Source: an uncultured Phycisphaeraceae bacterium (lineage in GTDB: Bacteria; Planctomycetota; Phycisphaerae; Phycisphaerales; Phycisphaeraceae). From it: 64,000 bases of DNA. The notes under the pieces were generated by a model. It made no database searches. It was not told the DNA's origin and saw nothing but the letters and a program-made list of their open reading frames with translations. The stretch covers positions 8,542 to 72,541 of the forward strand of contig CAZVBW010000001.1 in the NCBI GenBank assembly GCA_964625505.1, given 5' to 3'. Below are positions 5,765-62,847 of the stretch, piece after piece. The translations under genes were made by a program, and so were the position numbers. Positions within the stretch are counted from its first letter, which is position 1. Each line of letters starts with the position of its first letter.

Positions 5765-6577
5765 TCAGCCCGTAGGCTGCGCGACCGGCCAGCGGGATCT
5801 CGCGGCGTCCACACCCGCACGGCTGGCGAGCGCCGACTCCAGCGGCGGCATTTGCGGGCCGTCCCGTTCGACCACCACCCAGCCCGCATAGTCTTGCCGG
5901 TCCAGTTCCGCGAAGAACGCTGTAAATTCCAGGCCCGCCGAGCCGTCGCCGATCTCGGTGAAGGCCTCGCGGACCGGGTCCCAGTCCTTGAGGTGCACGT
6001 GCGTCACCCGCTCACCGTGCTTCCGCAGCATGGCCAGCGGGTCGGCCCCCGCGGCGATCAGGTGGCCCGTGTCGATGCATAGGTCCACGTCGGGCTTGTA
6101 CGCAAGCAGGCGGTCCAGTTCTTCGTCGGTCTCCACGATGCACTTGAGGTGCGGGTGGTAGCTCAGTCGGCAGCCGTGGTCGGCGGCGATCTTCGCGTGG
6201 GCGTCGAGGTTCTCGGCGAACATTTCGTACTCCCACTCGAAGGCGTGCCGGCGTTTGCCGGCGTTGAACCCGCCGCAGGTCATCAGCGTGCTCACGCCCA
6301 GCTGTCGGGCGTACGCGCAGCCGGTGCGGAACTTCTCGGTGGCCGGTGGGTGCGGGTTGAGCGTCACCGACGTGGCCAGGGCCGGGAGCCTCAAGCCGTG
6401 CTCATCCAGCAGCCGCTGCACCCGCCGCGGATCGCCGGTGCTTTCGGGATCGGCACCGAGCTCCACGCCGTCGTAACCGGCCTGGGCGACGTCGCGGCAG
6501 ACCCGCCGCAGGTCGAAAGGCTCGCCGCGCTGTTTGAACCAGCCGGCCCACGTGTTGACCTGGTGTCCGAGTTTCAT
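5765..6577 (-). CDS. Sugar phosphate isomerase/epimerase (xylose-isomerase-like TIM barrel)
   Basis: I start at the internal MKLGHQVNTWAGWF (ATG comp. 6575-6577) rather than the Arg/Pro-rich extension to 6724. There is an ATGA overlap with the upstream gene's stop. HVHLKDW and similar motifs are typical of the family. Confidence 0.8.
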   Translation of the reverse strand: MKLGHQVNTWAGWFKQRGEPFDLRRVCRDVAQAGYDGVELGADPESTGDPRRVQRLLDEHGLRLPALATSVTLNPHPPATEKFRTGCAYARQLGVSTLMTCGGFNAGKRRHAFEWEYEMFAENLDAHAKIAADHGCRLSYHPHLKCIVETDEELDRLLAYKPDVDLCIDTGHLIAAGADPLAMLRKHGERVTHVHLKDWDPVREAFTEIGDGSAGLEFTAFFAELDRQDYAGWVVVERDGPQMPPLESALASRAGVDAARSRWPVAQPTG

Positions 6578-43726: not shown

Positions 43727-44302
43727 ATGCTCCGCCGCCGGGACCCGGCGGTCCGGCGGACCTGCCGGCTGATGGAGCAGCAGTTCTGGTGCATGGGCTG
43801 TGACGCCCGGCGAAAAGCGGGCAATCTGCTGCTCGCCTACGGCTTCGAGGTGCATCCCGCACCGCAGGACGCGGCCGACTCCTGCTACACCCACGGCGAA
43901 GGCGACCGCCGGCTTTGGCTCTGGCGGTTTGGCGCGGCCTGGTCGGCCTCGGGTGTGCTGCTCTACGCCGACCGGGAAGACGCCCGGCCCCGCCTGATCC
44001 CTGCGGACATGGGCCGGACGCTGCACCACGTGCACCAACCCGAGCCGCTGCAGACCCTGACCACCTCCACCCGGCCGCGGTTGATCGCCAGTCTCGGCAC
44101 GCGGTTCGCCGCCTACGAGCGGTGGGTCCAGGAGACCGCCGGGCCGCTGTACCGGGAGCGGTGCGTCGCGAGCTGGCGTCGGCCACGGGTGGTCGACGCC
44201 TTGGCGATGGCCGACGCGTGGCGGGCCGTCGGCCATGAGCCCGCGGATGACTTGCGCTCGACAGGGGCTCCGGCCGGGGGCGTGCTGGCGACCGTAGGAT
44301 GA
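43727..44302 (+). CDS. Hypothetical protein
   Basis: The ORF has ordinary composition from the ATG at 43727 (MLRRRDPAVRRTCRLMEQQFWCMGCDARRK...). I recognise no family, and the start is uncertain (GTG at 43634 is possible). Confidence 0.4.
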   Translation: MLRRRDPAVRRTCRLMEQQFWCMGCDARRKAGNLLLAYGFEVHPAPQDAADSCYTHGEGDRRLWLWRFGAAWSASGVLLYADREDARPRLIPADMGRTLHHVHQPEPLQTLTTSTRPRLIASLGTRFAAYERWVQETAGPLYRERCVASWRRPRVVDALAMADAWRAVGHEPADDLRSTGAPAGGVLATVG

Positions 44303-44309
44303 GTTGTTG

Positions 44310-45542
44310 ATGGATGTGGTGCTTCAACTACTTGCCGCGTTGTGGGCGGTGGTGCTGGAGGCGGCGCCGTGGTTGTTGTTCGGGCTGATCATCGCGGGGC
44401 TGCTGAAGGGGTTGATGCCGCAGGCTTGGCTGGCGCGGTGGCTCGGCGGCCGGGGGGTCGGGCCGGTGGTGCGGGCGGCGGTGATTGGGGTGCCGTTACC
44501 GCTGTGTTCGTGCTCGGTGGTCCCCGCGGCGGTGGCGCTTCGGCGGACCGGGGCGAGTAAGGGGGCCACGGTGTCGTTCCTGGTCAGCACGCCGGAGAAC
44601 GGCGCGGATTCGTTGGCGTTGACGTACGCGCTGCTGGGCCCGGTGATGACGGTGGCCCGGCCGGTGGCGGCGGTGATCAGCGCGGTGGGGGCGGGGCTGG
44701 CGACGATGTGGTGGGACCGGGATGACAGCGAGCCGGGGTCTGTGACCCCGGATTCGGGATGCTGCGGAGGCGCAGCGCCGGTCGCGTCGTGCTGCGACAG
44801 CGAGCCGGTGTCTGTGACACCGGATTCGGGGTGCTGCGGCGGCGCGGACATACCAGACGCTTCTCCGCCTGCGGCGGATCAGGGTCGGCTTCCGGGGGTT
44901 CCGGGGGTTCCGGGGGCTCGGGGGCTGGCGAGGCGGTCGGTCGATGGGGTGCGGTATGCGTTGACGACGTTGCTGGACGAGATCGGGCTGTGGCTGGTGA
45001 TCGGGTTGGTGCTGGCGGCGGGGGTGGCGGTGCTGGCGCCGCCGGACGTGATCGCGCGGTGGGGCAGCGGGCCGCTGGCGATGGTGCTGATGCTGGTGGT
45101 GGGGGTGCCGATGTACATCTGTGCGACGGCGTCGACGCCGGTGGCCGCGGCGCTGCTGCTGGCGGGGGTGAGCCCGGGGACGGTGCTGGTGTTCTTGCTC
45201 GCCGGGCCTGCGACGAACCTGGGCACGGTCGGCATCGTCCGCCGGGAGCTCGGCTGGCGGGCGACGGGGTCGTACCTGGGCGCAGTGGCGATCGGCTCGA
45301 TCGGGGCGGGGCTGCTGCTGGACTGGATGATCACGGCCTGGCAGTTGCCGGTCATGGCCCACGTCGGCGAACACGGCGAGATGCTCCCGGCGTGGCTGGC
45401 GATCGGCTCGGCCGCCCTGCTGCTGACCCTCGGAGCGTGGCGCGTCGCCGTCCGGCTGGGCCAACGCTTCACCCGCGCAGACACCGACGCCCCCCAGCCC
45501 TGCTGCAGCACCGACGAATCCCCCGCGCCCGCCTCCGCCTGA
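44310..45542 (+). CDS. Permease of the DUF318/ArsP-like family (putative metal transporter) with a Cys-rich central loop
   Basis: The sequence includes LEAAPWLLFGLIIAGLLKG...VIGVPLPLCSCSVVPAAVALRRTGASKGATVSFLVSTPE. The central loop contains two SEPG/VSVTPDSGCCGG units encoded by repeat elements. Confidence 0.75.
   Translation: MDVVLQLLAALWAVVLEAAPWLLFGLIIAGLLKGLMPQAWLARWLGGRGVGPVVRAAVIGVPLPLCSCSVVPAAVALRRTGASKGATVSFLVSTPENGADSLALTYALLGPVMTVARPVAAVISAVGAGLATMWWDRDDSEPGSVTPDSGCCGGAAPVASCCDSEPVSVTPDSGCCGGADIPDASPPAADQGRLPGVPGVPGARGLARRSVDGVRYALTTLLDEIGLWLVIGLVLAAGVAVLAPPDVIARWGSGPLAMVLMLVVGVPMYICATASTPVAAALLLAGVSPGTVLVFLLAGPATNLGTVGIVRRELGWRATGSYLGAVAIGSIGAGLLLDWMITAWQLPVMAHVGEHGEMLPAWLAIGSAALLLTLGAWRVAVRLGQRFTRADTDAPQPCCSTDESPAPASA
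44727..44893. repeat. Two family-A elements (44727-44758, 44799-44830) and one family-B element (44850-44893) inside the permease loop
   Basis: Family A is AGCGAGCCGG(G/T)GTCTGTGAC(C/A)CCGGATTCGGG. Family B is ATACCAGACGCTTCTCCGCCTGCGGCGGATCAGGGTCGGCTTCC. Other copies are at 52686, 55260, 60433 and 62803. Confidence 0.8.
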
Positions 45543-49236: not shown

Positions 49237-49380
49237 AGACTCCAGACACGCGGGGCAAGCCCCACGGCTAAATGATCAATGTAGCCCCTCCACCTCTTCG
49301 TGCCTCCGTGCCTCCGTCCCTCACCACTTCGTCTCTCCGTCTCTTATCTCTGCGTCTCTCCCCCCCGCCTATCTTCCCCC

Positions 49381-50970
49381 ATGCCCCGCCCCCTCATGCC
49401 GATCCTCGGCAACCAGCTGTTCCCCTGGGTCCGCCTCAAGCCCCACGCCGACGCCCACTTCTTTCTGGCTGAGGACCTGGAGCTGTGCACCTACGTCCGG
49501 CACCACAAGCAGAAGCTCGTGCTGTTCCTCGCCGCGATGCGGAGCTACGCCGACGAGCTCCGAGACCACGACGCCGACGTCCACTACGTGCCCCTAAGCC
49601 CCGCATGTACATGCGGGGCTCAAGCCGCCACCACCTACGAAGCGAAACTCACCGCCCACCTGCACCGCCTCCGCGAGCAGCACGGCAGCGATGCGGTCAG
49701 CCACGTCCGCCTGTGGGAGGTCGAGGACAAGTGGTTCGAGCAGCGGCTCGAGGCTTGGGCCGGTGAGCATGACCTGGACATCCAGTGGCTGACCTCCCCG
49801 ATGTTCGTCACCACCCGGCAGCAGTTCGAGGACTACCTCGATGAGGCGTCCGGGCCGTTCATGGCCAAGTTCTACGAACGCCAGCGCCGCCGGCTCAAGA
49901 TCATGGTCGACGACGCAGGGGCGCCCCACGGCGGGCAGTGGAGCTACGACCACGACAACCGCGAAAAGCTCCCCGACCACGTCGAGATCCCCGACGTGAA
50001 CTACGCCAACCCGACCCAGCACGTTCAAGACGTGATGAAGCTCGTCGGTGAACACTTCCGGGGGCACCCCGGTCAGCTCGATGACTGGTGGCTGCCGACG
50101 ACCCGCCGGCAGGCGTTGTCATGGCTTCGGCAGTTTCTGGACGACCGGTTCTATCACTTCGGACCCTACGAAGACGCCCTGAGCAACCGCGGGCCTTGGC
50201 TGTTCCACAGCGTGCTCTCGCCGATGATGAACATGGGCCTGATCACCCCGGATGAGGTCCTGGACCGGGCCGTGGCCGTCGCCGACGAAAAGCAGGTCCC
50301 GATCAATTCGCTCGAAGGCTTCGTCCGCCAGATCATCGGCTGGCGGGAGTTCATCCGCGGCATCTACCGCGAGTACAGCGAGAAGCAGGAGCAGGCCAAC
50401 CACTTCGGCGCCACCGGCAAACTCACCGACCACTGGTACGACGCGACCACCGGCATCCCCCCGCTGGACGACGCGATCCGCAAGGCCCAGCGCTTCGGCT
50501 GGACCCACCACATCGAGCGCCTCATGGTCCTGGGCAACCTCATGAACCTCACCGGCCTGCACCCCCACGAGGCCCACCGCTGGTTCATGGAGATGTACGT
50601 CGACTCCTCCGACTGGGTCATGGGCCCCAACGTCTACGGCATGGCCCTGCACAGCGACGGCGGCATCTTCGCCACCAAACCCTACATCGCCGGCAGCAAC
50701 TACCTCCGCAAGATGAGCGCCTACAAGTGCCCCCGGAAGCCAACCGCCGCGTCACTGCATGATGGGGAACCGGTCGATGGCACCGGCGAGGCGACATGGT
50801 GTGATGTCGTCGACGGACTCTACTGGCGCTTCATCGACCAGCACCGCGCGACCTTCGTGAGCAACCCCCGCATGTCCATGATGACCCGCACCCTCGACAA
50901 GCTGAAGCCCGACCGCCGAAAGCAAATCTTTGGTGCGGCCGAGCGGTTCATCGAGCGGGTGGTGAATTGA
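49381..50970 (+). CDS. Cryptochrome/photolyase-related protein (DPRP / COG3046 type)
   Basis: MPRPLMPILGNQLFPW...LAEDLELCTYVRHHKQKLVLFLAAMRSYADEL and the C-terminal WTHHIERLMVLGNLMNL, FMEMYVDSSDWVMGPNVYGM match the family from memory. I take the ATG at 49381. Confidence 0.8.
   Translation: MPRPLMPILGNQLFPWVRLKPHADAHFFLAEDLELCTYVRHHKQKLVLFLAAMRSYADELRDHDADVHYVPLSPACTCGAQAATTYEAKLTAHLHRLREQHGSDAVSHVRLWEVEDKWFEQRLEAWAGEHDLDIQWLTSPMFVTTRQQFEDYLDEASGPFMAKFYERQRRRLKIMVDDAGAPHGGQWSYDHDNREKLPDHVEIPDVNYANPTQHVQDVMKLVGEHFRGHPGQLDDWWLPTTRRQALSWLRQFLDDRFYHFGPYEDALSNRGPWLFHSVLSPMMNMGLITPDEVLDRAVAVADEKQVPINSLEGFVRQIIGWREFIRGIYREYSEKQEQANHFGATGKLTDHWYDATTGIPPLDDAIRKAQRFGWTHHIERLMVLGNLMNLTGLHPHEAHRWFMEMYVDSSDWVMGPNVYGMALHSDGGIFATKPYIAGSNYLRKMSAYKCPRKPTAASLHDGEPVDGTGEATWCDVVDGLYWRFIDQHRATFVSNPRMSMMTRTLDKLKPDRRKQIFGAAERFIERVVN
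49597..49620. repeat. 24-nt perfect palindrome (family E) inside the photolyase-related gene
   Basis: AGCCCCGCATGTACATGCGGGGCT has a second copy, AGCCCCGCATGTGCATGCGGGGCT, at 53641-53664 inside murC. Confidence 0.85.
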
Positions 50971-51056
50971 CGAGCCGCGACCGTGAGGGAGCGGACAGGC
51001 CCCAGCGGCACCGCGCGTGTCGTCTCCAACCTCCGCTCCCTGACGGTCGCGGCTCG

Positions 51057-52661
51057 TCAGACGACGCCGGCACTGCCGGTGGTGATCGGTTCGCTGACAT
51101 ACTCCCGGGGGTCGGTGACGTGGCCGGTGAGGGCGGAAGCAGCGACGGTGAGGGGGCTGGCGAGGAAGACGCCGGCGGACTTGTGGCCCATTCTGCCGGG
51201 GAAGTTCCTGTTGGTTGAAGAGATGCACGCCATCGGCTCGTTGAGTCGGCCGAAGGTATCTTGCGGTCCGCCGAGGCAGGCGGCGCAAGACGCCGGGCCG
51301 ATGAGGCAACCGGCGGCTTCGAGGGCGTCGTAGATGGAGGTGGTGGCTTTGCGGTCGCCGTTGGACGGACCCACCCCCGGAGGGGGTGGGCTTTCGCCGC
51401 CGCGGGCGAGGAGTTGAGATTGCGTGGGGATGGGGCCGGAGATGCCGGGGATGGCGGGGTTGCTGAGGGTGATGGGGACGCCGTCGCCGTTGGCGCTGCC
51501 GTTGGAACCCACCCCCGGAGGGGGTGGGCTTTCGTTGCCGTTCAGCGGCTCGCCGTAGAGGTTGAGCCGTTGCATGTCCCGATGGACCTCGGTGGACCCG
51601 GGCACCACATAGGTGGGGATCTTCACCTCGTTGCCGTGGAGGATGTTGGCGGCGAACAGCATGTCCGTGATCTTGCCGCCGGTGCATGAGCCGAGGTAGG
51701 CGCGGTCCAGCTGGACGTCCTCGCAGTTGCGGGCCAGGTCCTTGTTGTCCGGGGAGTGGGGCTTGGCGACCATGGGTTCCATGGCGGCGAGGTCCCACTC
51801 GTGCTCGAAGATGTACTCGACGCCGGGGTCGTCTTCGTAGACGGTCCAGTCTGGCCGTTTGGAGCGGTTGCGGACGTAGGCGAGGGTCTTCTCGTCGACG
51901 TCGCAGATGCCGTTCTTGCCCCCGGCCTCGATGGCCATGTTGGTCAGGGTCATGCGGTCTTCGAGCGACAGCGAGCCGATGCCGTCGCCTGCGAAGTACA
52001 TCGTCTTGTAGGTCGCGCCGCTGACGGAGATGTGGCCGATGACCGCGAGGATGAGGTCCTTGGCGGTGAGGTAAGACGGGATCTCGCCGTGGAAGGCGAA
52101 CTTCATCGTCGGCGGGGTTTTGAGCCAGGTCTTGCCGGTGCCGAGGGTGAACGCGGCGTCGGTGTTGCCCACGCCGGTGGCGAACATGCCCAGGGCGCCG
52201 GCGGTACAGGTGTGGCTGTCGGTGCCCAGCAACAGCTCGCCCGGGCGGACGTGGCCCTCCTCGGGCAGGGCCTTGTGGCAGACGCCCTTGTAGGACGTGG
52301 TCGACGGGTCGCGGTAGCTGGCGGGCATCCCCGAGTCGGGGTCGGTGTCGAGGAAGTCGGGGTCGTAGTACCAGGGCAGCTTGTGCTCGGCGACGAAGTC
52401 GCGGAGGGTCTGGACGTTGCGGTGGCACTTGCCGTCGGCGGTGAAGATGTAGTGGTCGGGGATGATGACCACGCGGTCGGGGTCCCAGACCTTGGCGTCG
52501 GGTCCGAACTCCTTCTTGAAGATCCCGATGGTCCCGGGGCCGCAGACGTCGTGGGTGAGCAGGACATCGACGTCGACCCAGACGTTTTCGCCGGGCGCGA
52601 CGTAGTCACGGCCGGCGTGGGCGGCGAAGATCTTCTGGGTCATGGTCATGGGTGCGGGCAT
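51057..52661 (-). CDS. leuC: Aconitase-family large subunit (3-isopropylmalate/homoaconitate dehydratase LeuC/HacA type) with an internal insertion of about 70 aa
   Basis: The sequence includes MTQKIFAAHAG, LLTHDVCGPG, GTDSHTCTAGALG, GSCTGGK, ASCAACLGG and STNRNFPGRMG. No small-subunit gene is adjacent. Confidence 0.85.
   Translation of the reverse strand: MPAPMTMTQKIFAAHAGRDYVAPGENVWVDVDVLLTHDVCGPGTIGIFKKEFGPDAKVWDPDRVVIIPDHYIFTADGKCHRNVQTLRDFVAEHKLPWYYDPDFLDTDPDSGMPASYRDPSTTSYKGVCHKALPEEGHVRPGELLLGTDSHTCTAGALGMFATGVGNTDAAFTLGTGKTWLKTPPTMKFAFHGEIPSYLTAKDLILAVIGHISVSGATYKTMYFAGDGIGSLSLEDRMTLTNMAIEAGGKNGICDVDEKTLAYVRNRSKRPDWTVYEDDPGVEYIFEHEWDLAAMEPMVAKPHSPDNKDLARNCEDVQLDRAYLGSCTGGKITDMLFAANILHGNEVKIPTYVVPGSTEVHRDMQRLNLYGEPLNGNESPPPPGVGSNGSANGDGVPITLSNPAIPGISGPIPTQSQLLARGGESPPPPGVGPSNGDRKATTSIYDALEAAGCLIGPASCAACLGGPQDTFGRLNEPMACISSTNRNFPGRMGHKSAGVFLASPLTVAASALTGHVTDPREYVSEPITTGSAGVV
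51370..51538. repeat. Two direct copies of hairpin CCCACCCCCGGAGGGGGTGGG (family D) 148 nt apart inside leuC
   Basis: The copies lie at 51370-51390 and 51518-51538. They share the flanks GTTGGA..AC and CTTTCG. Each encodes ESPPPPGVG on the coding strand. Confidence 0.85.
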
Positions 52662-52685
52662 GGCGGGGATTGTAGGTGCGTCATG

Positions 52686-52737
52686 AGCGAGCCGGGGTCT
52701 GTGACCCCGGATCCGGGTTCGCAGAACCCGGCTCGCT
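52686..52737. repeat. Full-length family-A element (closing stem plus two internal hairpins) in the divergent leuC/murC intergenic region
   Basis: The sequence is AGCGAGCCGGGGTCTGTGACCCCGGATCCGGGTTCGCAGAACCCGGCTCGCT. The outer stem AGCGAGCCGGG/CCCGGCTCGCT encloses the hairpins CCGGGG-tctgtga-CCCCGG and CCGGGTT-cgcag-AACCCGG. Confidence 0.8.
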
Positions 52738-52768
52738 TAAGAAGGCCGCGGCGGCCGATAGCATCCGT

Positions 52769-54277
52769 ATGACGCTGATGAGCTCGCCGCCGATGAACCA
52801 CGTGCCGCCCGCTGCCCCGTCGCTCGCCGGGCGCCGGCTGCACTTCTGCGGCATCGGCGGGTGCGGCATGTCTGGCCTGGCCCGCATGGCCGCCCAGCAG
52901 GGGGCCCACGTCACCGGCAGCGACCGCACCGCCTCGGCGGTTACGCGTGGTCTCCAGTCGGTCGGCATCGACGTGGCACTCGAGCAATCAGCGGACACCC
53001 TTCCGGGGGACGCGGACGTGCTGGTCGTCACCGCGGCGATCCCCGCCGGCCACCCCGAGCTGGCTGAGGCGCAGCAGCGGGGCATCGACGTCATCAAGTA
53101 CGCCCAGCTGCTGGGCCGGCTGATGATCGGCCGCACCGGCGTGGCCATCGCGGGGACCCACGGCAAGTCGACCACCACGTCCCTGCTGTGCCACCTGCTG
53201 CTGACCGCCCAGCTGGACCCGTCGTTCATCGTCGGGGCGAGTTGCCCGCAGATCGGCGGCGGCGCCCGCGTCGGCGGGTCCGGCGGGTCCGGGGGGTCCG
53301 GGGGGTCGGACGTGCTCGTCGCCGAGGCTTGCGAGTACGACCGCTCATTCCACGCCCTGCACCCGAGCGTCGCGGCGATCCTTAACGTCGAAGCCGACCA
53401 CCTGGACATTTACGACGACCTCGGGGCAATCGTCGAGGCGTTCGCGCGCTTCGCGTCGCTGCTGCCCCCGGAAGATGGGGCCGGCGGCGCCGGGGGGTTT
53501 TTGCTCATCAATCACGATGTGCCGTCACGGCAGGATATCGCCGGGGCGACCTCGGCCACCGTGCAGACGATCGGGTTTCATCCGCAGGCGGATTGGCGGA
53601 TCGAAGTGGACGGGCCGCGGGTGACATTGTCGCGAATCGAAGCCCCGCATGTGCATGCGGGGCTCAGGCTCGAGTGGACCCAGCCGATCCCCGGCGAGCA
53701 CATGGCATTCAACGCCGCCGCCGCCGCGGTGCTCGCCCATCGGTTGGGAGCGGGGTGGGACGCGATCCGCGAAGGGCTTGAAAGCTTCCGGGGGCTGCAG
53801 CGGCGGATGGACTGGCTCGGGCACCGGTTGTGTCAGCCGACGGATTTACATCCGCGGCTTCGGGCGACTGCGGTGCCGGTGATCGATGATTACGGGCACC
53901 ACCCGACGGAGATCGACACGACGCTGCGGGCGCTGCGGCAGCACCACCGGCCGCAGCGCTTGATCTGCGTGTTCCAGCCGCACCAGCACAGCCGAACGCG
54001 TCACCTGCTCGATGGGTTTGCCGGAGCGTTCAGCCAGGCGGACGTGGTGATCGTGCCGGAGATTTACTTCGTGCGGGACAGCGAGCAGGATCGCCGAGAG
54101 GTCACGTCGCAGCACCTGGTCCAGCGGCTCAGCGACCGGGGCGTGGACGCGATGCACCTGCACCCGTTCGAGGCCATCGTCGACCACCTGCACCGGCACA
54201 CGCGTCCGGGCGACTTGGTCGTGACGATGGGCGCGGGGCCAGTCGACCGCATCGCGCACGGGTACCTGCGTTCATAA
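52769..54277 (+). CDS. murC: UDP-N-acetylmuramate--L-alanine ligase
   Basis: Hallmarks are LHFCGIGGCGMSGLARM, VAIAGTHGKSTTTSL, EACEYDRSF, NVEADHLDIY and DDYGHHPTEI. I take the ATG at 52769. Confidence 0.85.
   Translation: MTLMSSPPMNHVPPAAPSLAGRRLHFCGIGGCGMSGLARMAAQQGAHVTGSDRTASAVTRGLQSVGIDVALEQSADTLPGDADVLVVTAAIPAGHPELAEAQQRGIDVIKYAQLLGRLMIGRTGVAIAGTHGKSTTTSLLCHLLLTAQLDPSFIVGASCPQIGGGARVGGSGGSGGSGGSDVLVAEACEYDRSFHALHPSVAAILNVEADHLDIYDDLGAIVEAFARFASLLPPEDGAGGAGGFLLINHDVPSRQDIAGATSATVQTIGFHPQADWRIEVDGPRVTLSRIEAPHVHAGLRLEWTQPIPGEHMAFNAAAAAVLAHRLGAGWDAIREGLESFRGLQRRMDWLGHRLCQPTDLHPRLRATAVPVIDDYGHHPTEIDTTLRALRQHHRPQRLICVFQPHQHSRTRHLLDGFAGAFSQADVVIVPEIYFVRDSEQDRREVTSQHLVQRLSDRGVDAMHLHPFEAIVDHLHRHTRPGDLVVTMGAGPVDRIAHGYLRS
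53641..53664. repeat. Family-E palindrome inside murC
   Basis: AGCCCCGCATGTGCATGCGGGGCT encodes EAPHVHAGL in frame. Confidence 0.85.
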
Positions 54278-55259: not shown

Positions 55260-55286
55260 GAATCCGGGGTCACAGACTCCGGCTCG
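55260..55286. repeat. Family-A element copy (reverse orientation) overlapping the 3' end of the GT9 gene
   Basis: The reverse complement is CGAGCCGGAGTCTGTGACCCCGGATTC. Its loop TCTGTGA supplies the last codons ...SRSL and the TGA stop (comp. 55270-55272). Confidence 0.8.
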
Positions 55287-56526
55287 ACAGCGACGTCTGC
55301 AGCTCTTGCCACACCGCGTCCACCGGGACCCGTCGGATCAGCGCGTCATCATCCTTGCGTCGGCGGTAGTTGCTCATCTCCTCGGGCGTGAGGCCCGGGG
55401 GCTGCACGACCGACTCGGGCCGGCCGTAGGGACCGACGAGCGCCGGGTCGGTCGGTCCGAAGATGGCCACGGTCGGCACGTCCAGCCCCACCGCGAGGTG
55501 CAGCGGTGCCGAGTCGTTGCACACCACCGCCGACGCCCGGCGGATCAGCCCCATCATCTGCCCCACCGTCGTCCGCGGCCAAGTGGCATCACCTCCCAGT
55601 TCCCGCAGCACCACTTCCGCACGCGACGCCTCCCCCGGCGAAGCCAGCACCACCACCGGCCCCCGCCCCCGCCCACCCCGCAACGCCCGCCGCCCCAGCT
55701 CCGCGAACATCTCCGGCGGCCAGCACTTGCAACCCCACTGCGCCGTCGGCGCCAAAATCAGCGGGCCGACCTCTGGCCCCCTCTCCCTCGCAGGGAGAGG
55801 GCCGGGGTGAGGGTTGGGCTCCGCGTCGCCTGCATGCTTAGAACCTGCACGCACCCCTCCCCCACCCCCCCCCTGCAAGGGAGGGGGGGCAGCCGGGCTG
55901 GCCGCCAGTGCCCGCGGCTCAGCAGGAGCTTCGCCCTCCCGAACCGGCGCCGGCCGCGAACCGTGCCCGTGCTCCCCCAACCACCGATCCGCCCACGCCT
56001 GGTCCGCCTCCGCGACGTACAGCCGCATGTCGTGCACCGGCTCATGCCCGTCGGCCGCCAGCAGCCCCAACATCCGGTCCACCGTGTGCGGGGCACCGAT
56101 GCGGTGGCGATCCTTCCGGGGGCATGCCAGCCACGCCCCCTCCCGGGCATCAGCAAACCCCACCCGCCGCGGCGCCCGCGTGGCCCACGTCATCAGCCCC
56201 GACCGGGCCAGGCCCTGCAGGTCATACACCACGTCGTACCGCCCCCCCCGCAGCCGCTCCGCCAGTGCCTTCGCCGCCACCCGGGCCGACGCCCGCCCCG
56301 GCCAACCGCGCACCGCCGCCCGATCAAACGGCACCACCTCATCCAGCATCGGGTGCGACGCCACCGCCGCCGAGAACGCTTCATTGACCACCCAATCGAT
56401 CCGCGCCCCGGGCCACGTCGCCCGCAGCGTCGCCAGACACGGCACCGTCCGCGCCACATCGCCCAGCGCCGACGGGCGGATGATCAGGACACGTTCGGGT
56501 GAATCCATTCCCACAGTCTCACCCAT
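55270..56526 (-). CDS. Glycosyltransferase family 9 (heptosyltransferase-like) with an internal repeat-derived insertion
   Basis: RVLIIRPSALGDVARTVPCL...IDWVV and the C-terminal ...NDSAPLHLAVGLDVPTVAIFGPTDP are present. An extra segment of about 60 aa, PAPVREGEAPAEP...PLQGGGGGG...PHPGPLPARERGP, corresponds to the repeats at 55776-55892. Confidence 0.8.
   Translation of the reverse strand: MGETVGMDSPERVLIIRPSALGDVARTVPCLATLRATWPGARIDWVVNEAFSAAVASHPMLDEVVPFDRAAVRGWPGRASARVAAKALAERLRGGRYDVVYDLQGLARSGLMTWATRAPRRVGFADAREGAWLACPRKDRHRIGAPHTVDRMLGLLAADGHEPVHDMRLYVAEADQAWADRWLGEHGHGSRPAPVREGEAPAEPRALAASPAAPPPLQGGGGGGVRAGSKHAGDAEPNPHPGPLPARERGPEVGPLILAPTAQWGCKCWPPEMFAELGRRALRGGRGRGPVVVLASPGEASRAEVVLRELGGDATWPRTTVGQMMGLIRRASAVVCNDSAPLHLAVGLDVPTVAIFGPTDPALVGPYGRPESVVQPPGLTPEEMSNYRRRKDDDALIRRVPVDAVWQELQTSLSSRSL
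55776..55892. repeat. Two family-C hairpin elements inside the GT9 gene
   Basis: The first is CCCTCTCCC-tcgca-GGGAGAGGG followed by CCGGGGTGAGGGT (55780-55815). A degenerate C9/G7-rich version lies at 55854-55892. Confidence 0.8.
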
Positions 56527-56597
56527 CTGAAGCCGCGGGTGTCAACCCGTCGGCTCAGCCCGCCGAAGACGTCCACTCCATGTAACTTGCATCCACC

Positions 56598-58060: not shown

Positions 58061-58204
58061 GTAGATTCAATTCCGGGGGGCGTTTAGCCCGCGGTGTCAG
58101 CCGCGGCGGGGCGACCCGGCTTCGCCGGGAGCGCGGGCCAAGGCCCGCGGCTAAACAAGCGCCGAATCACCCGCCGGCGGTCATCGGACCGATAAGTCAC
58201 GGGT

Positions 58205-60250
58205 ATGGACCCGGCGATCTGGCGCGCGAACCTGGCGGCACTGCGACGGCGGCACCCGCTGGCGGCCGATGCCGTCGAGGCGGCAGAGCCCGCGTGCCTG
58301 CAGTGGGCCCAGGGGCGGGACGGGGCGGCGGTGGCGAGCATCGACCACGACGGCCGGCCGCTCGCGATGTGCAGCAAGTACGCCCCGCTCGACGAAGCCA
58401 GGGCCCTGATCGACCCGGTGGACCTGGACAAGGCGGCGTGCGTCGCCGTGCTGGGTTGCGGGGTGGGGCACCACGTCGCGGCGCTGGCCGATCGACTGAG
58501 CCGAAAGGCGGTGCTGGTGGTCTACGAGCCGGACGCCGGGCTGCTGCGGGCCGTGCTGGAGCGGGTGGACCACAGCGGCTGGCTGGGGGCGGACCACGTG
58601 GTGCTCATGGTCGGCGAAGAGGTCGACCGCGGGCAGCTGATCCGGCTGATCGAGCCGCGGGCGATGGTCGTGACCCAAGGCACACAGCTGGTCTCGCACC
58701 CGCCGACGCGTCGTCGGCATGCGGCCCAGCTCAAGGCCTTCGCCGACGAGCTGACCGCGGGCATCGACTACTGCCGGATGTCGATCGCGACGGTGCTGGT
58801 CAACGGCGTGCGGACCTGCCACAACCTCGCGATGAACCTGCCGCACTACACGGCCGGCGAGACGGTCAACGACCTCTACCAGGCCGCCGCCGGTCGGCCG
58901 GCCGTGCTTGTCGGGGCCGGGCCGTCGCTGGTGAAGAACGTCGACCTGCTGACCGACCCGGCGGTGCGGAACAACGTGGTGCTCATCACGGTGCAGACGT
59001 GCCTCAAGCCGCTGCTGGACCGCGGCATCCGCCCGGACTTCGTGACCGCGCTGGACTACTCAGCGATCTGCACGCGGTTTTACGAAGGGCTGCCGGACCT
59101 GCCCGACGTGACGCTCGTCGCCGAGCCCAAGGCCAACCCCGCCATCCTCGACGCGTTCCCCGGGCCGATCCGCATCTGCCGCAGCGAGTTCAACGACCAT
59201 GTGCTGGGCAACCCCGCCGACGGCGGGCTGAGCCGGCCGATGCGGCACGTCCCCGCCGGGGCGACCGTGGCCCACCTGTCCTTCTACGTGGCCCAGCTGC
59301 TGGGCTGCGACCCGATCATCATGATCGGCCAGGACCTGGGCTTTTCCGACGGCCTGTACTACGCCCCGGGCACGCCGGTGCACCAGGTCTGGTCCAGCGA
59401 GCTGGGCGCCTTCAACACCATCGAGATGATGGAGTGGACCCGCATCGTGCGGATGCGTGGCCACCTGTCCCGGCACGAGGACGTCCACGGCCGGCCGATC
59501 TTCAGCGACCAGCAGATGATCGCGTACCTGCGGCAGTTCGAGCGCGATTTCGCCGCCGCCCCGCAGACCGTTATCGACGCCACCCAGGGCGGGATGCCCA
59601 AGCTGCACACCACGCGGATGACCCTCGCCGAGGCGCTCGCCGAGCACGCGACCCAGCCCGTGCCGCCACTTCCGCAGGCCCAGCGAAACGTGGACGCCGA
59701 CCGACTGACGCGGCTGGGCCCGCTGCTGGATCGGCGGGTGGAGCAGGTGCAGCAGCTGGGCCGGACTACCCGGGCCTCGGTCCGCCTGCTCGAGCAGATG
59801 CAGGTCGCTCACGGCAAGGCAGACCAGTCCCGGCTCGCTTCGTTGTTCGCCAAGCTCAAGAAGCACCAGGCCCGGGTACACGGCGAACTGGGCGACGCCT
59901 TTGCCATCGTCAGCCTGATCAACAGCACCGGCGGGTTCGAACGCAATCGGCAGGACCGCCTGATCGACACCCACAGCGCCGACGGCCGCGACCGTGAAGC
60001 CCGGCAGATGCAGCGCGACCTGGCCAACCTCAAGTCGCTGCTGAGCGGTGTGGACGAGGCGGTCCGGATCCTCCGCGATGCGCGGGGGCGGGTGGCTGAT
60101 GTCTCGGCCTCCCCTCCCTCTCAGGGAGGGGCCGGGGGAGGGTCGAGCCGTCCCGCCGCCGATACGCCCGCGGCCCGTCCGCTGCGACCCTCACCCCAGC
60201 CCTCTCCCTGCAAGGGAGAGGGGGCCAAGCCGCTGAAGGAGGCCGCGTGA
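58205..60250 (+). CDS. DUF115 / motility-accessory-factor (Maf)-like putative nonulosonic-acid glycosyltransferase
   Basis: The central block is PAVLVGAGPSLVKNVDLL...VLITVQTCLKPLLDRGIRPDFVTALDY...GATVAHLSFYVAQLLGCDPIIMIGQDLGF. It matches the MptE-like/DUF115 core of Maf proteins (from memory). The C-terminal tail is repeat-derived. Confidence 0.65.
   Translation: MDPAIWRANLAALRRRHPLAADAVEAAEPACLQWAQGRDGAAVASIDHDGRPLAMCSKYAPLDEARALIDPVDLDKAACVAVLGCGVGHHVAALADRLSRKAVLVVYEPDAGLLRAVLERVDHSGWLGADHVVLMVGEEVDRGQLIRLIEPRAMVVTQGTQLVSHPPTRRRHAAQLKAFADELTAGIDYCRMSIATVLVNGVRTCHNLAMNLPHYTAGETVNDLYQAAAGRPAVLVGAGPSLVKNVDLLTDPAVRNNVVLITVQTCLKPLLDRGIRPDFVTALDYSAICTRFYEGLPDLPDVTLVAEPKANPAILDAFPGPIRICRSEFNDHVLGNPADGGLSRPMRHVPAGATVAHLSFYVAQLLGCDPIIMIGQDLGFSDGLYYAPGTPVHQVWSSELGAFNTIEMMEWTRIVRMRGHLSRHEDVHGRPIFSDQQMIAYLRQFERDFAAAPQTVIDATQGGMPKLHTTRMTLAEALAEHATQPVPPLPQAQRNVDADRLTRLGPLLDRRVEQVQQLGRTTRASVRLLEQMQVAHGKADQSRLASLFAKLKKHQARVHGELGDAFAIVSLINSTGGFERNRQDRLIDTHSADGRDREARQMQRDLANLKSLLSGVDEAVRILRDARGRVADVSASPPSQGGAGGGSSRPAADTPAARPLRPSPQPSPCKGEGAKPLKEAA
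60107..60225. repeat. Two family-C hairpin elements (opposite orientations) forming the 3' end of the Maf-like gene
   Basis: The first is CCCCTCCC-tctca-GGGAGGGG followed by CCGGGGGAGGGT (60111-60143). The second is ACCCTCACCCCAG followed by CCCTCTCCC-tgcaa-GGGAGAGGG (60187-60222). Confidence 0.8.
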
Positions 60251-61999: not shown

Positions 62000-62755
62000 A
62001 TGAGCATCAAAACCCTGGGCGTCGTTCTCGCCCGAGCCGGCAGCAAGGGCCTGCCTGAAAAGAACTCCCGCCCCGTCGCCGGCAAGCCCATGCTCAGCTG
62101 GACGATCGAGCACGCCCTGGCCAGCCCGGCGCTGGACCGCGTGGTCTTGTCGACCGACGGCCAGGAACTGGCTCAGATCGGCCGCAAGCACAAGATCGAG
62201 GTGGTCCACCGCCCCTACGAACTGGCTCACGACACCGCCCCGGTCGACGCCGCCGCCCGCCACGCGGTGACTTCCATCATCGGGATGCACGAGCAGGTCG
62301 TGATCCTCTACGCCAATGTCCCGGTCCGCCCGGCCGACTTGGTCCAGCGGGCCGTCGACAAGCTCCAAGCCACCGGCTGCGACTCGGTCCAGTCCGTGTG
62401 CCCGGTCGGCAAGCACCACCCCTACTGGATGCAGCAGGTCCTGCCCGAACCGGGCGTCCGCGACCCCTCCGCCCACGCCGCCGGCCACGGCAGGCTCGAG
62501 CCGTTCCACGCCAATCAGGTCGACCGCCGGCAAGACCTGCCGCCGCTGTACGTCCTGGACGGCGGGATCATCGCCGTCCGCCGCGACAGCCTCTTTCACG
62601 TGGTCGAGGGCCAGCCGCACGCCTTCCTCGGCGACGACCGCCGGGCCATCATCACCCAGCCCGGCGAGGTCATCGACGTGGACAGCCCGCTGGAACTGCA
62701 CGTCGCCGAGGCCGTCCTCAACGAACAGCAAAACGCCGCCCGCGGCATCGCCTGA
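62000..62755 (+). CDS. Acylneuraminate (CMP-nonulosonic acid) cytidylyltransferase family protein
   Basis: An AGGAGG RBS precedes the start. The sequence is MSIKTLGVVLARAGSKGLPEKNSRPVAGKPMLSWTIEHAL...VLSTDG.... Confidence 0.8.
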   Translation: MSIKTLGVVLARAGSKGLPEKNSRPVAGKPMLSWTIEHALASPALDRVVLSTDGQELAQIGRKHKIEVVHRPYELAHDTAPVDAAARHAVTSIIGMHEQVVILYANVPVRPADLVQRAVDKLQATGCDSVQSVCPVGKHHPYWMQQVLPEPGVRDPSAHAAGHGRLEPFHANQVDRRQDLPPLYVLDGGIIAVRRDSLFHVVEGQPHAFLGDDRRAIITQPGEVIDVDSPLELHVAEAVLNEQQNAARGIA

Positions 62756-62766
62756 CGCCCCCCAAA

Positions 62767-62847
62767 GCCCACCCCTTCAGGGGTGGGCGGGTACCTGATG
62801 CCCCGAAGACGACGCCGATCCGCCTCAGGCGGAGAAGCGTCTGGTAT
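62767..62847. repeat. Family-D-like hairpin (62767-62788) plus a family-B element (62803-62847, reverse) filling the intergenic gap
   Basis: The hairpin is GCCCACCCC-ttca-GGGGTGGGC. The reverse complement of 62803-62847 is ATACCAGACGCTTCTCCGCCTGAGGCGGATCGGCGTCGTCTTCGG. Confidence 0.8.

Follow-up and report, generated by a model that had tools for sequence, protein, structure and literature searches.

An in-frame pair of REP-like palindromes in a LeuC/HacA-type gene of an uncultured Phycisphaeraceae bacterium

Introduction

How does a housekeeping gene come to carry two copies of one palindrome inside its reading frame? The question is raised by a 64,000-nt stretch of contig CAZVBW010000001.1 (assembly GCA_964625505.1, positions 8,542–72,541 of the forward strand; hereafter the window) from an uncultured Phycisphaeraceae bacterium, in which a leuC gene for an aconitase-family large subunit contains an extra segment with two identical hairpins. 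Rickettsia provides the best-known cases of selfish palindromic DNA surviving in frame, and the scattered repetitive extragenic palindromes (REPs) known inside genes come mainly from Proteobacteria. A first-pass annotation, made from the letters of the window, likened the segment to Rickettsia palindromic elements (RPEs). We find this interpretation largely right in substance and, taken formally, partly supported. We consider it rather probable that both hairpins are copies of a short palindromic repeat, REP-like and dispersed in Phycisphaerae, which is tolerated in a permissive, probably disordered turn of LeuC domain 3.

The host gene

The segment lies in the following gene.

51057–52661, minus strand: leuC host gene, an intact open reading frame (ORF) of 534 aa encoding an aconitase-family LeuC/HacA-type large subunit

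The protein matches Pfam Aconitase (PF00330; E=1.3e-81) and belongs to the family: it scores above the curated cut-offs of NCBIfam NF001614, the aconitase/3-isopropylmalate dehydratase large-subunit family (434 bits; cut-off 385), and of TIGR01343 hacA_fam (399.6; cut-off 385.7), and the Fe-S ligand motifs GSCTGG and SCAACLGG are present and invariant. It stays under the cut-offs of the equivalog models LEU2 and HacA_Meth, so LeuC/HacA-type is the finest assignment that the data allow. Its nearest solved structures are those of the Methanocaldococcus jannaschii isopropylmalate isomerase (IPMI) large subunit (4KP1 and 4NQY; E about 1e-94), and its best database matches all come from Phycisphaerae, e.g., Algisphaera, Mucisphaera and many Phycisphaeraceae metagenome-assembled genomes (MAGs). 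Aligned with 19 orthologs (20 sequences; alignment A1), the protein matches every invariant column and its catalytic motifs are intact. The idea that a housekeeping enzyme tolerates the insert is thereby supported, all conserved motifs being kept.

An artefact or decay, either a mis-assembled repeat or a pseudogene, would be one explanation of such a segment, as the data are metagenomic and 28-nt repeats can confuse short-read assemblers. A separately recorded JGI contig (L039; sample 3300040788, which holds contig Ga0450788_246083) matches the window with 99.98% identity over 10,123 nt and has the identical two-hairpin structure; one of the two differences is a single-nucleotide polymorphism in the spacer between the hairpins, non-synonymous (N to T). 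The structure thus agrees base for base in two separately recorded contigs, which makes an assembly artefact unlikely. The frame is open, G+C content at third codon positions (GC3) is 0.91 across the gene and 0.90 in the spacer (G+C of the window, 69.5%), and all invariant family residues are kept. We regard this explanation as very improbable.

Extent and site of the insert

The first-pass annotation placed an insertion of about 70 aa at 51340–51560. The insertion itself is confirmed by its absence from most orthologs, both in A1 and in a survey of loop lengths, and its size and extent are corrected as follows.

51357–51545, minus strand: in-frame insert of 63 aa (residues 373–435; 189 nt) between LNLYGEP and DRKATTSIY, delimited by A1 and the loop survey

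The length of 63 aa is relative to the commonest ortholog form, and in A1 the orthologs continue after the insert site with D-K-A-T-T-S-(I/V)-Y. For the loop survey, the segment from PGSTEVH to C(A/S)ACLGG was measured in 117 of the best 120 matches. It is 35 aa long in 79 of the 117, which carry no extra residues, 41–54 aa in 33 (6–19 extra residues) and 72–98 aa in five (37–63 extra residues); the window protein is the longest. Loop sequences are unrelated between lineages. The nearest relatives, P0002 and P0004 (73–75% overall identity in the search, 81–82% over aligned columns), already carry a loop of 13–15 aa at this site, so that about 48–50 residues of the insert are lineage-specific; this roughly equals one 138-nt repeat period plus a 12-nt micro-duplication, both described below. 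The site has long been a hypervariable loop in the clade, and 13–15 of the "insert" residues were probably present beforehand.

Within the protein, the insert occupies a turn of domain 3, between a helix at residues 357–365 and one at 437–449, and lies 22 residues ahead of SCAACLGG (starting at residue 458). The AlphaFold2 model built on A1 assigns a predicted local distance difference test (pLDDT) score of <50 to residues 376–434, flanked by confident helices, and the alignment with 4NQY places the site in a short unaligned stretch (chain residues 358–373). The first-pass annotation had asked whether the insert is a surface loop of the aconitase fold; the model shows a low-confidence turn between two predicted helices. 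The insert is probably a disordered excursion from the helix-turn-helix of domain 3.

Anatomy of the insert

Going along the coding strand, the insert and its flank comprise five parts.

51507–51533, minus strand: hairpin unit A (N-terminal copy), coding strand GAAAGCCCACCCCCTCCGGGGGTGGGT, encoding ESPPPPGVG (residues 377–385); palindrome proper 51508–51528
51483–51506, minus strand: flank of unit A, GTCGCCGTTGG (51483–51493) and its 12-nt near-duplicate CGCTGCCGTTGG (51494–51505), encoding SNGSANGD
51396–51482, minus strand: spacer of 87 nt, encoding GVPITLSNPAIPGISGPIPTQSQLLARGG; GC3 0.90, native-like codon usage
51369–51395, minus strand: hairpin unit B (C-terminal copy), 27-nt core equal to unit A, encoding ESPPPPGVG (residues 423–431); palindrome proper 51370–51390
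51354–51364, minus strand: flank of unit B, GTCGCCGTTGG again, encoding NGD

The coding strand accordingly reads CTG AAC GGC AAC, GAAAGCCCACCCCCTCCGGGGGTGGGT, TCC AACGGC AGCGCC AACGGCGAC, the spacer, GAAAGCCCACCCCCTCCGGGGGTGGGT, CCG TCC AACGGCGAC and CGC AAA GCC. The 21-nt palindrome CCCACCCCCGGAGGGGGTGGG has exactly two copies in the window, where 0.04 matches with ≤3 mismatches would be expected by chance. Its first position, 51370, had been given correctly, whereas the second (51518) and the spacing (148 nt) were each off by 10: the second copy begins at 51508, and the two lie 138 nt (46 codons) apart. As proposed, each 21-nt hairpin encodes ESPPPPGVG and the copies have the same orientation, being direct repeats in a shared reading frame; they have 28 identical bases in common, and over 34 nt they are 94% identical. 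A perfect stem of 9 bp encloses a loop of 3 nt, and on the mRNA each hairpin folds into a 10–11-pair stem of −22 to −25 kcal/mol (z −3.8 to −4.2 vs shuffles). Codon usage of the unit appears foreign: GC3 of the 27 nt is 0.56 against 0.91 for the gene, and the codons CCA, CCT, GGT and GAA are unusual for this genome.

Shared flanks, also claimed at first, exist on one side. To the right, TCCAACGGC...GAC follows both units and similarity extends over about 44 nt (local alignment, P about 0.005), with 12 nt in common; to the left it is at chance level (P = 0.56). This local flank is missing from the dispersed copies in other genomes described below, which points to a local duplication of the unit together with its flank. 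The duplicated piece appears to be the unit plus about 12–16 nt and not the surrounding gene, and the 12-nt micro-duplication beside unit A (NGSA/NGD) looks to be of slippage type. The insert contains two same-orientation palindrome copies without being built from them alone: the units and the shared 12-nt flank make up less than half of its 189 nt, and the 87-nt spacer comes besides. The spacer holds 9-nt near-repeats (ATCyCCGGC) and resembles neither the adjacent coding sequence nor the rest of the window nor the fetched loci above background.

Several other origins were considered. A 70% DNA identity between NGDGVPITLSNPAI and NGDRKATTSIYDAL had prompted the idea that 138 nt of the coding sequence beside the insert were tandemly duplicated and the redundant halves then decayed, the spacer being what is left of DRKATTSIYDAL... 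or QRLNLYGEP... For the insert as a whole this idea was dropped: the left flank speaks against it, and the spacer without its first 24 nt scores 16 against the downstream gene, no better than background (window-wide mean 16.8). There is no evidence of an intein or a programmed frameshift, the frame being continuous and the segment of low complexity. The only match in Rfam, to a plant-virus hairpin, lies below threshold and is put down to chance (20.3 bits; gathering score 40), and a protein search with a 70-aa insert peptide returned zero matches, its own database entry included, probably because low complexity defeats the word index.

Dispersal of the hairpin unit in other genomes

Copies of the unit are found in other genomes. 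The dispersed unit reads (G)AAAG-CCCACCCCC-NNN-GGGGGTGGG, with NNN = TCC in the 25–30-nt form that recurs in other Phycisphaerae, and is about 26 nt long (size range 26–43 nt). The exact 21-mer, sought in 596 Gb of species-representative genomes, has 17 matches, of which eight fall in six Phycisphaerae MAGs, a marked enrichment given how small the clade is. When the AAAG flank is included, the exact match grows to 30 nt in L007, 28 nt in L011 and 25 nt in L004. The first-pass annotation had asked whether the hairpin might be unique to leuC; it is not, as these 25–30-mers are intergenic in L011 and L004 and lie in frame in the valS gene of L007. Seven of the nine located copies in related MAGs are intergenic, most just 3′ of a gene or between convergent genes, and the L012 copy has no clear context. 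These copies, and a further intergenic one in the window, are placed as follows.

L011: 45 nt past the ileS stop codon, intergenic
L002 and L013: between convergent genes, intergenic
L003 (one copy) and L004 (two copies): just past a stop codon, intergenic
L008: intergenic
Window, 62762–62788, plus strand (match at 62768): third family member, the intergenic variant AAAGCCCACCCCttcaGGGGTGGGC, beginning within about ten bases of the stop of a cytidylyltransferase gene ending at 62755

With this variant, the degenerate hairpin pattern has three matches in the window vs 0.03 expected.

Two further copies form an inverted pair, GAAAG-CCCACCCGC-TCC-GCGGGTGGG-AGAT-CCCACCCCC-GGA-GGGGGTGGG-CTTTC, inside valS of a Phycisphaeraceae MAG (JBBDMX010000014.1; L007 1030–4332). 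The pair is held by a 25-aa insertion of the valyl-tRNA synthetase (ValRS; query 791–815) that splits residues adjacent (603/604) in Thermus ValRS 1GAX, and it is read in another frame than the leuC units (PTPGGGG). The same ValRS has another insertion of about 80 aa (query 413–507 vs 1GAX), which contains PLSLGERAGVRG...SPQPSPSEGRGG, typical of the CCCTCTCCC/GGGAGAGGG repeat family.

Identical 25–30-mers at unrelated loci of different genomes cannot arise independently and imply some copy mechanism. This bears on a rival explanation in which the loop grew in situ without a mobile element: a low-complexity segment expanded by slippage and tandem duplication, the palindromes arose de novo by template switching, and one local duplication made two hairpins of one. 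Several features of the locus agree with such growth, namely the 12-nt micro-duplication beside unit A, the 9-nt near-repeats and native codon usage of the spacer, the flank common to both units and absent from the dispersed copies (P about 0.005), and the short direct and tandem repeats in the loops of the orthologs L040 and L041 (that of L040 without a significant fold). However, independent de novo origin leaves the identical 25–30-mer at unrelated loci in at least three other genomes inexplicable, the arms of two other LeuC inserts (L043 and L044, see below) are dispersed too, and beyond about 44 nt the spacer resembles adjacent coding sequence no more than background, as does the left flank. 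In situ growth as the whole explanation is therefore unlikely in our estimation; it may still account for how one acquired unit became two.

A metagenome scan for the 21-mer gave 21 matches, none with the CTTTCG flank and none from this organism. Seven metagenome contigs of 32–40% G+C (L018, L022, L023, L026, L029, L036 and L038) have in common a conserved block of >100 nt in which the hairpins CCCACCCCCGCCGGGGGTGGG and CCCACCCCCGGAGGGGGTGGG lie side by side, and more hairpin copies are scattered over the contigs, with as many as six matches in L029; Rfam returned nothing at the gathering threshold for L029 and L018. This low-GC element is unrelated to the Phycisphaerae unit and contains the 21-mer by happenstance. 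In a Firmicutes MAG (L009 6213–6233), a LeuC homolog (end of the tblastn match at 6193) is followed after about 20 nt by the identical 21-mer, here with a lengthened stem and an A-run behind it; this copy is presumably a coincidental terminator hairpin.

The same LeuC turn in other lineages

The loop DNA of ten other loop-bearing LeuC orthologs was fetched and each loop was folded vs shuffles. Loops of L040, L042, L046 and L047 have no significant fold; those of L041, L043, L044, L048 and L049 fold much better than shuffles, and that of L045 reaches z −2.2, as follows.

L041 (P0058): z −3.1, one long imperfect hairpin, 130–177 nt range
L043 (P0086): z −6.7, one long imperfect hairpin, 130–177 nt range
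L044 (P0118): z −4.3, one long imperfect hairpin, 130–177 nt range
L048 (P0056): z −3.5, short loop with a stem-loop of ≥7 bp
L049 (P0012): z −3.1, short loop with a stem-loop of ≥7 bp
L045 (P0016): z −2.2, short loop with a stem-loop of ≥7 bp

The long single-hairpin inserts of L041, L043 and L044 look like elements of the MITE type (miniature inverted-repeat transposable elements) read through in frame. The arms of the L044 insert are found again in L044 (12281), L043 (17633) and L041 (1013–1092). A 26-nt arm of the L043/P0086 insert, CTTCGTGCCTCCGTGCCTCCGTCCCT, is found exactly at 49296–49321 of the window, in the divergent intergenic region upstream of the DPRP gene, one arm only being present there. 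Judged by sequence, one turn of LeuC has thus received at least three unrelated palindrome families, represented by CCCACCCCC, GAGGGGCC and an ACGAAG-octamer type.

Phycisphaerae LeuC has a second variable site at A1 columns 290–313, between host residues 271/272, where P0016, P0061, P0082 and P0085 carry an insert of about 16–22 aa (e.g., GSTFEGSSRHPDIPYADASG) and the host protein has none.

Recurrence of hairpins at one site also suggests another rival, in which they are selected as nucleic-acid structure: a ribosome pause before the two Fe-S cysteine ligands, stabilisation of the transcript, or antisense intrinsic terminators that keep transcripts of the convergent photolyase-related gene (end at 50970) from running on. 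In about 7 of the 11 loop-bearing Phycisphaerae orthologs, strong hairpins unrelated in sequence occupy the same codon position, about 20–80 codons before those ligands, and the leuC units are identical at 28/28 bases despite divergent surroundings. A terminator scan of 50900–52800 called a single site on the plus strand, copy A with its CTTTCGTT tail, which faces the convergent photolyase-related gene, and related intergenic copies directly follow stop codons. Yet hairpin size ranges from 20 to 160 nt and the exact position varies. Copy B, whose tail has only 3 T, is not among the sites called, so that in the antisense direction one copy passes a simple scan and the other fails, a count equal to shuffle expectation (mean 1.0). 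On the sense strand, the hairpins are followed by UUCCAACGG or UCCGUCCAA, which is not the run of an intrinsic terminator, and the L011 unit has its T-rich side on the non-transcribed strand. The whole insert folds no better than shuffles (z = −1.2) because its composition is G+C-rich, and only the individual hairpins stand out; no Rfam family matches. Finally, 79 of the 117 orthologs lack any insert, so the structure is dispensable for LeuC. For these reasons (most orthologs insert-free, copy B failing the scan, shuffles giving one site, no Rfam family) a functional role is rated low.

We thus hold it to be distinctly improbable that the leuC hairpin is selected rather than just tolerated, with structure conserved without sequence and a function recruited from the genome's pool of palindromic repeats. 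If true, hairpin selection would amount to a programmed translational pause for cluster insertion or folding, to mRNA protection, or to an antisense terminator within a coding loop.

Palindromes in other genes of the window

A scan of the window for hairpins (perfect stem ≥8 bp, loop 3–9 nt) revealed further palindromes inside coding sequence. The GT9 heptosyltransferase (55270–56541, minus strand) has about 67 residues beyond Escherichia coli WaaC between its two domains (query 151–260 vs chain 149–191). This extra stretch (...PAAPPPLQGGGGGGVRAGSKHAGDAEPNPHPGPLPARERGPEVGP..., region 55700–55960) contains two palindromes, CCCTCTCCCTcgcAGGGAGAGGG-CCGGGGTGAGGG (55779) and CCCCCCCTgcaagggAGGGGGGG (55867). 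The family of the first, CCC(C/T)CTCCCT-NNN-AGGGAG(A/G)GGG-CCGGGG, recurs at 60111 and 60200; both of these copies fall in the last 50 codons of an MptE-like open frame (58196–60250), which are either a C-terminal extension or an intergenic region.

An ArsP-type permease (44298–45542) contains a tandemly duplicated Cys-rich DSEP(G/V)SVTPDSGCCGG segment at 44724–44843, DSEPGSVTPDSGCCGG...DSEPVSVTPDSGCCGG, whose basis is the hairpin CCGGGGTCtgtGACCCCGG. This hairpin recurs in the divergent leuC-murC intergenic region (52684–52736), where it is paired with a second hairpin, CCGGGTTCgcaGAACCCGG, and the pair lies within a larger palindrome, AGCGAGCC...GGCTCGCT.

A 30-nt palindrome, AAGCCCCGCATGTRCATGCGGGGCTCARGC (with its variable bases, AAGCCCCGCATGT(A/G)CATGCGGGGCTCA(A/G)GC; 10-bp stem), is present in two genes and in different frames: at 49595–49626 it reads LSPACTCGAQ in the photolyase-related DPRP gene, and at 53639–53670 EAPHVHAGLR in MurC. 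The MurC copy causes zero net length change vs PDB 9ir5, so a palindrome within a gene does not always mean added length here. MurC also has a GGSGGSGGSGGS run (53273–53308), part of which is an insertion of about 9 aa vs 9ir5, the closest solved MurC.

As to the neighbourhood of leuC, no leuD (small-subunit gene) lies beside it in the window (50971–52661) or in the relatives examined (L040 and L041). The gene downstream of leuC is BrnT-toxin-like in both relatives; in the window this place is taken by the convergent photolyase-related gene.

Proposed origin and significance

On the most economical reading of these observations, several families of small palindromes, REP-like or MITE-like, are present in Phycisphaerae genomes, and copies landing in permissive disordered loops persist in frame. 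For leuC, we propose that a unit, spread by a copy mechanism such as transposition or recombination, landed in, or was copied into, the hypervariable and probably disordered domain 3 turn. As the turn tolerates extra residues, the unit would be read through in frame as the Pro/Gly-rich ESPPPPGVG. A single acquisition, followed by local duplication together with the 12-nt flank, seems the most likely course, and slippage may have lengthened the loop additionally. The insert would be neutral or nearly so for the enzyme, and insertions would be visible here since only a permissive part of the fold lets them survive.

Several points weigh against a dispersed repeat as the source of the leuC hairpins. 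Only three family members are found in 64 kb, two of them in leuC, and related MAGs each have one or two copies of the exact 21-mer, too few for this precise sequence to be a high-copy family. The unit has neither the GTAG nor the CGTC tag that marks the two large REP superfamilies, there is no clean target-site duplication around the units, and the 87-nt spacer is left unexplained by a dispersed-palindrome origin. The 28/28 identity of the units amid divergent surroundings also fits selection on the hairpin or gene conversion, and the hairpins at one LeuC site in about 7/11 loop-bearing lineages could mean selection for structure. The AlphaFold model behind the predicted disorder is mediocre (mean pLDDT 71, predicted template modelling score (pTM) 0.75, 20-sequence alignment). 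Our view is that of a 64-kb window, beyond which lie the whole-genome copy number, the coding/intergenic ratio and any cognate transposase, either a REP-associated tyrosine transposase (RAYT) or one of IS200/IS605 type.

The case extends the survival of palindromes in frame to free-living, high-GC Phycisphaerae (Planctomycetota), in which at least three unrelated palindrome families have, from lineage to lineage, come to occupy the same loop of an essential Fe-S enzyme. With several in-frame palindromes in a single 64-kb window, the clade offers a natural system for studying insertion tolerance, repeat-born disordered segments and the co-option of hairpins. Inserts of this sort make proteins longer and can lead gene callers and domain annotation astray in planctomycete MAGs. 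The single case is not surprising in itself; its main value is as an entry point to the clade-wide pattern.

Comparison with known palindromic elements

In-frame persistence of palindromes has been described for REPs and RPEs of other phyla (PMC3733652, PMC10969869), and Di Nocera et al. 2013 (PMC3733652) list intragenic REPs within ORFs. Among bacterial MITEs, ERIC, Nezha and the Anabaena MITEs have intragenic copies in frame (PMC10969869, PMC3184786). In the literature searched, we found no description of in-frame palindromic repeats for Phycisphaerae.

Compared with MITEs, the two leuC hairpins, 117 nt apart, mimic terminal inverted repeats (86% complementary). However, their shared flanks show that the units are direct repeats, and neither a related transposase nor a clean target-site duplication was identified. 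The best candidate for the latter, AACGGCAAC left of unit A and AACGGCGAC right of unit B (8/9 identical), does not abut the units, and AACGGC occurs between them as well.

The resemblance to REPs is closer. Both are G+C-rich imperfect palindromes of 20–40 bp, and the leuC unit forms the stable stem-loop expected of a REP. REPs are mostly intergenic, 3′ of genes or between convergent genes, and so are the copies of the unit located in related MAGs; some copies of either lie wholly inside ORFs, tRNA synthetase genes included, and clusters can encode tens of residues. The inverted pair in L007 valS (GAAAG-H1-AGAT-H2-CTTTC) recalls a REPIN, the doublet form of REPs; the leuC units are direct repeats instead. 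Unlike in REPs, no GTAG/CGTC tag abuts the palindrome on either strand, the flanks being AACGAAAG...GGGTTCC and GGCGAAAG...GGGTCCG, and no RAYT (Y1 transposase) gene turned up in the window, whose ORFs were only partly screened.

RPEs are about 100–150 bp long and encode a conserved peptide of ~30–50 aa (Ogata et al. 2000, summarised in PMC10969869 and PMC3733652). Like them, the leuC units are palindromic repeats in frame in an apparently still functional housekeeping gene, adding a peptide at a seemingly tolerated position, and families of both kinds are also found outside genes. As far as the sequence tells, the leuC insert is an in-frame insertion in a gene for an apparently functional protein, as an RPE is. 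The comparison drawn by the first-pass annotation therefore stands as a functional analogy and fails as to size, since the unit measures 26–43 nt and encodes 9–14 aa, which is REP-sized; both size and host set it apart from the RPE families, and kinship to RPEs in sequence is not expected. Its host is a free-living high-GC planctomycete, whereas RPE hosts are reduced intracellular alphaproteobacteria. By analogy, then, the leuC palindromes appear to work like Rickettsia RPEs and intragenic REPs, yet belong to neither class as defined.

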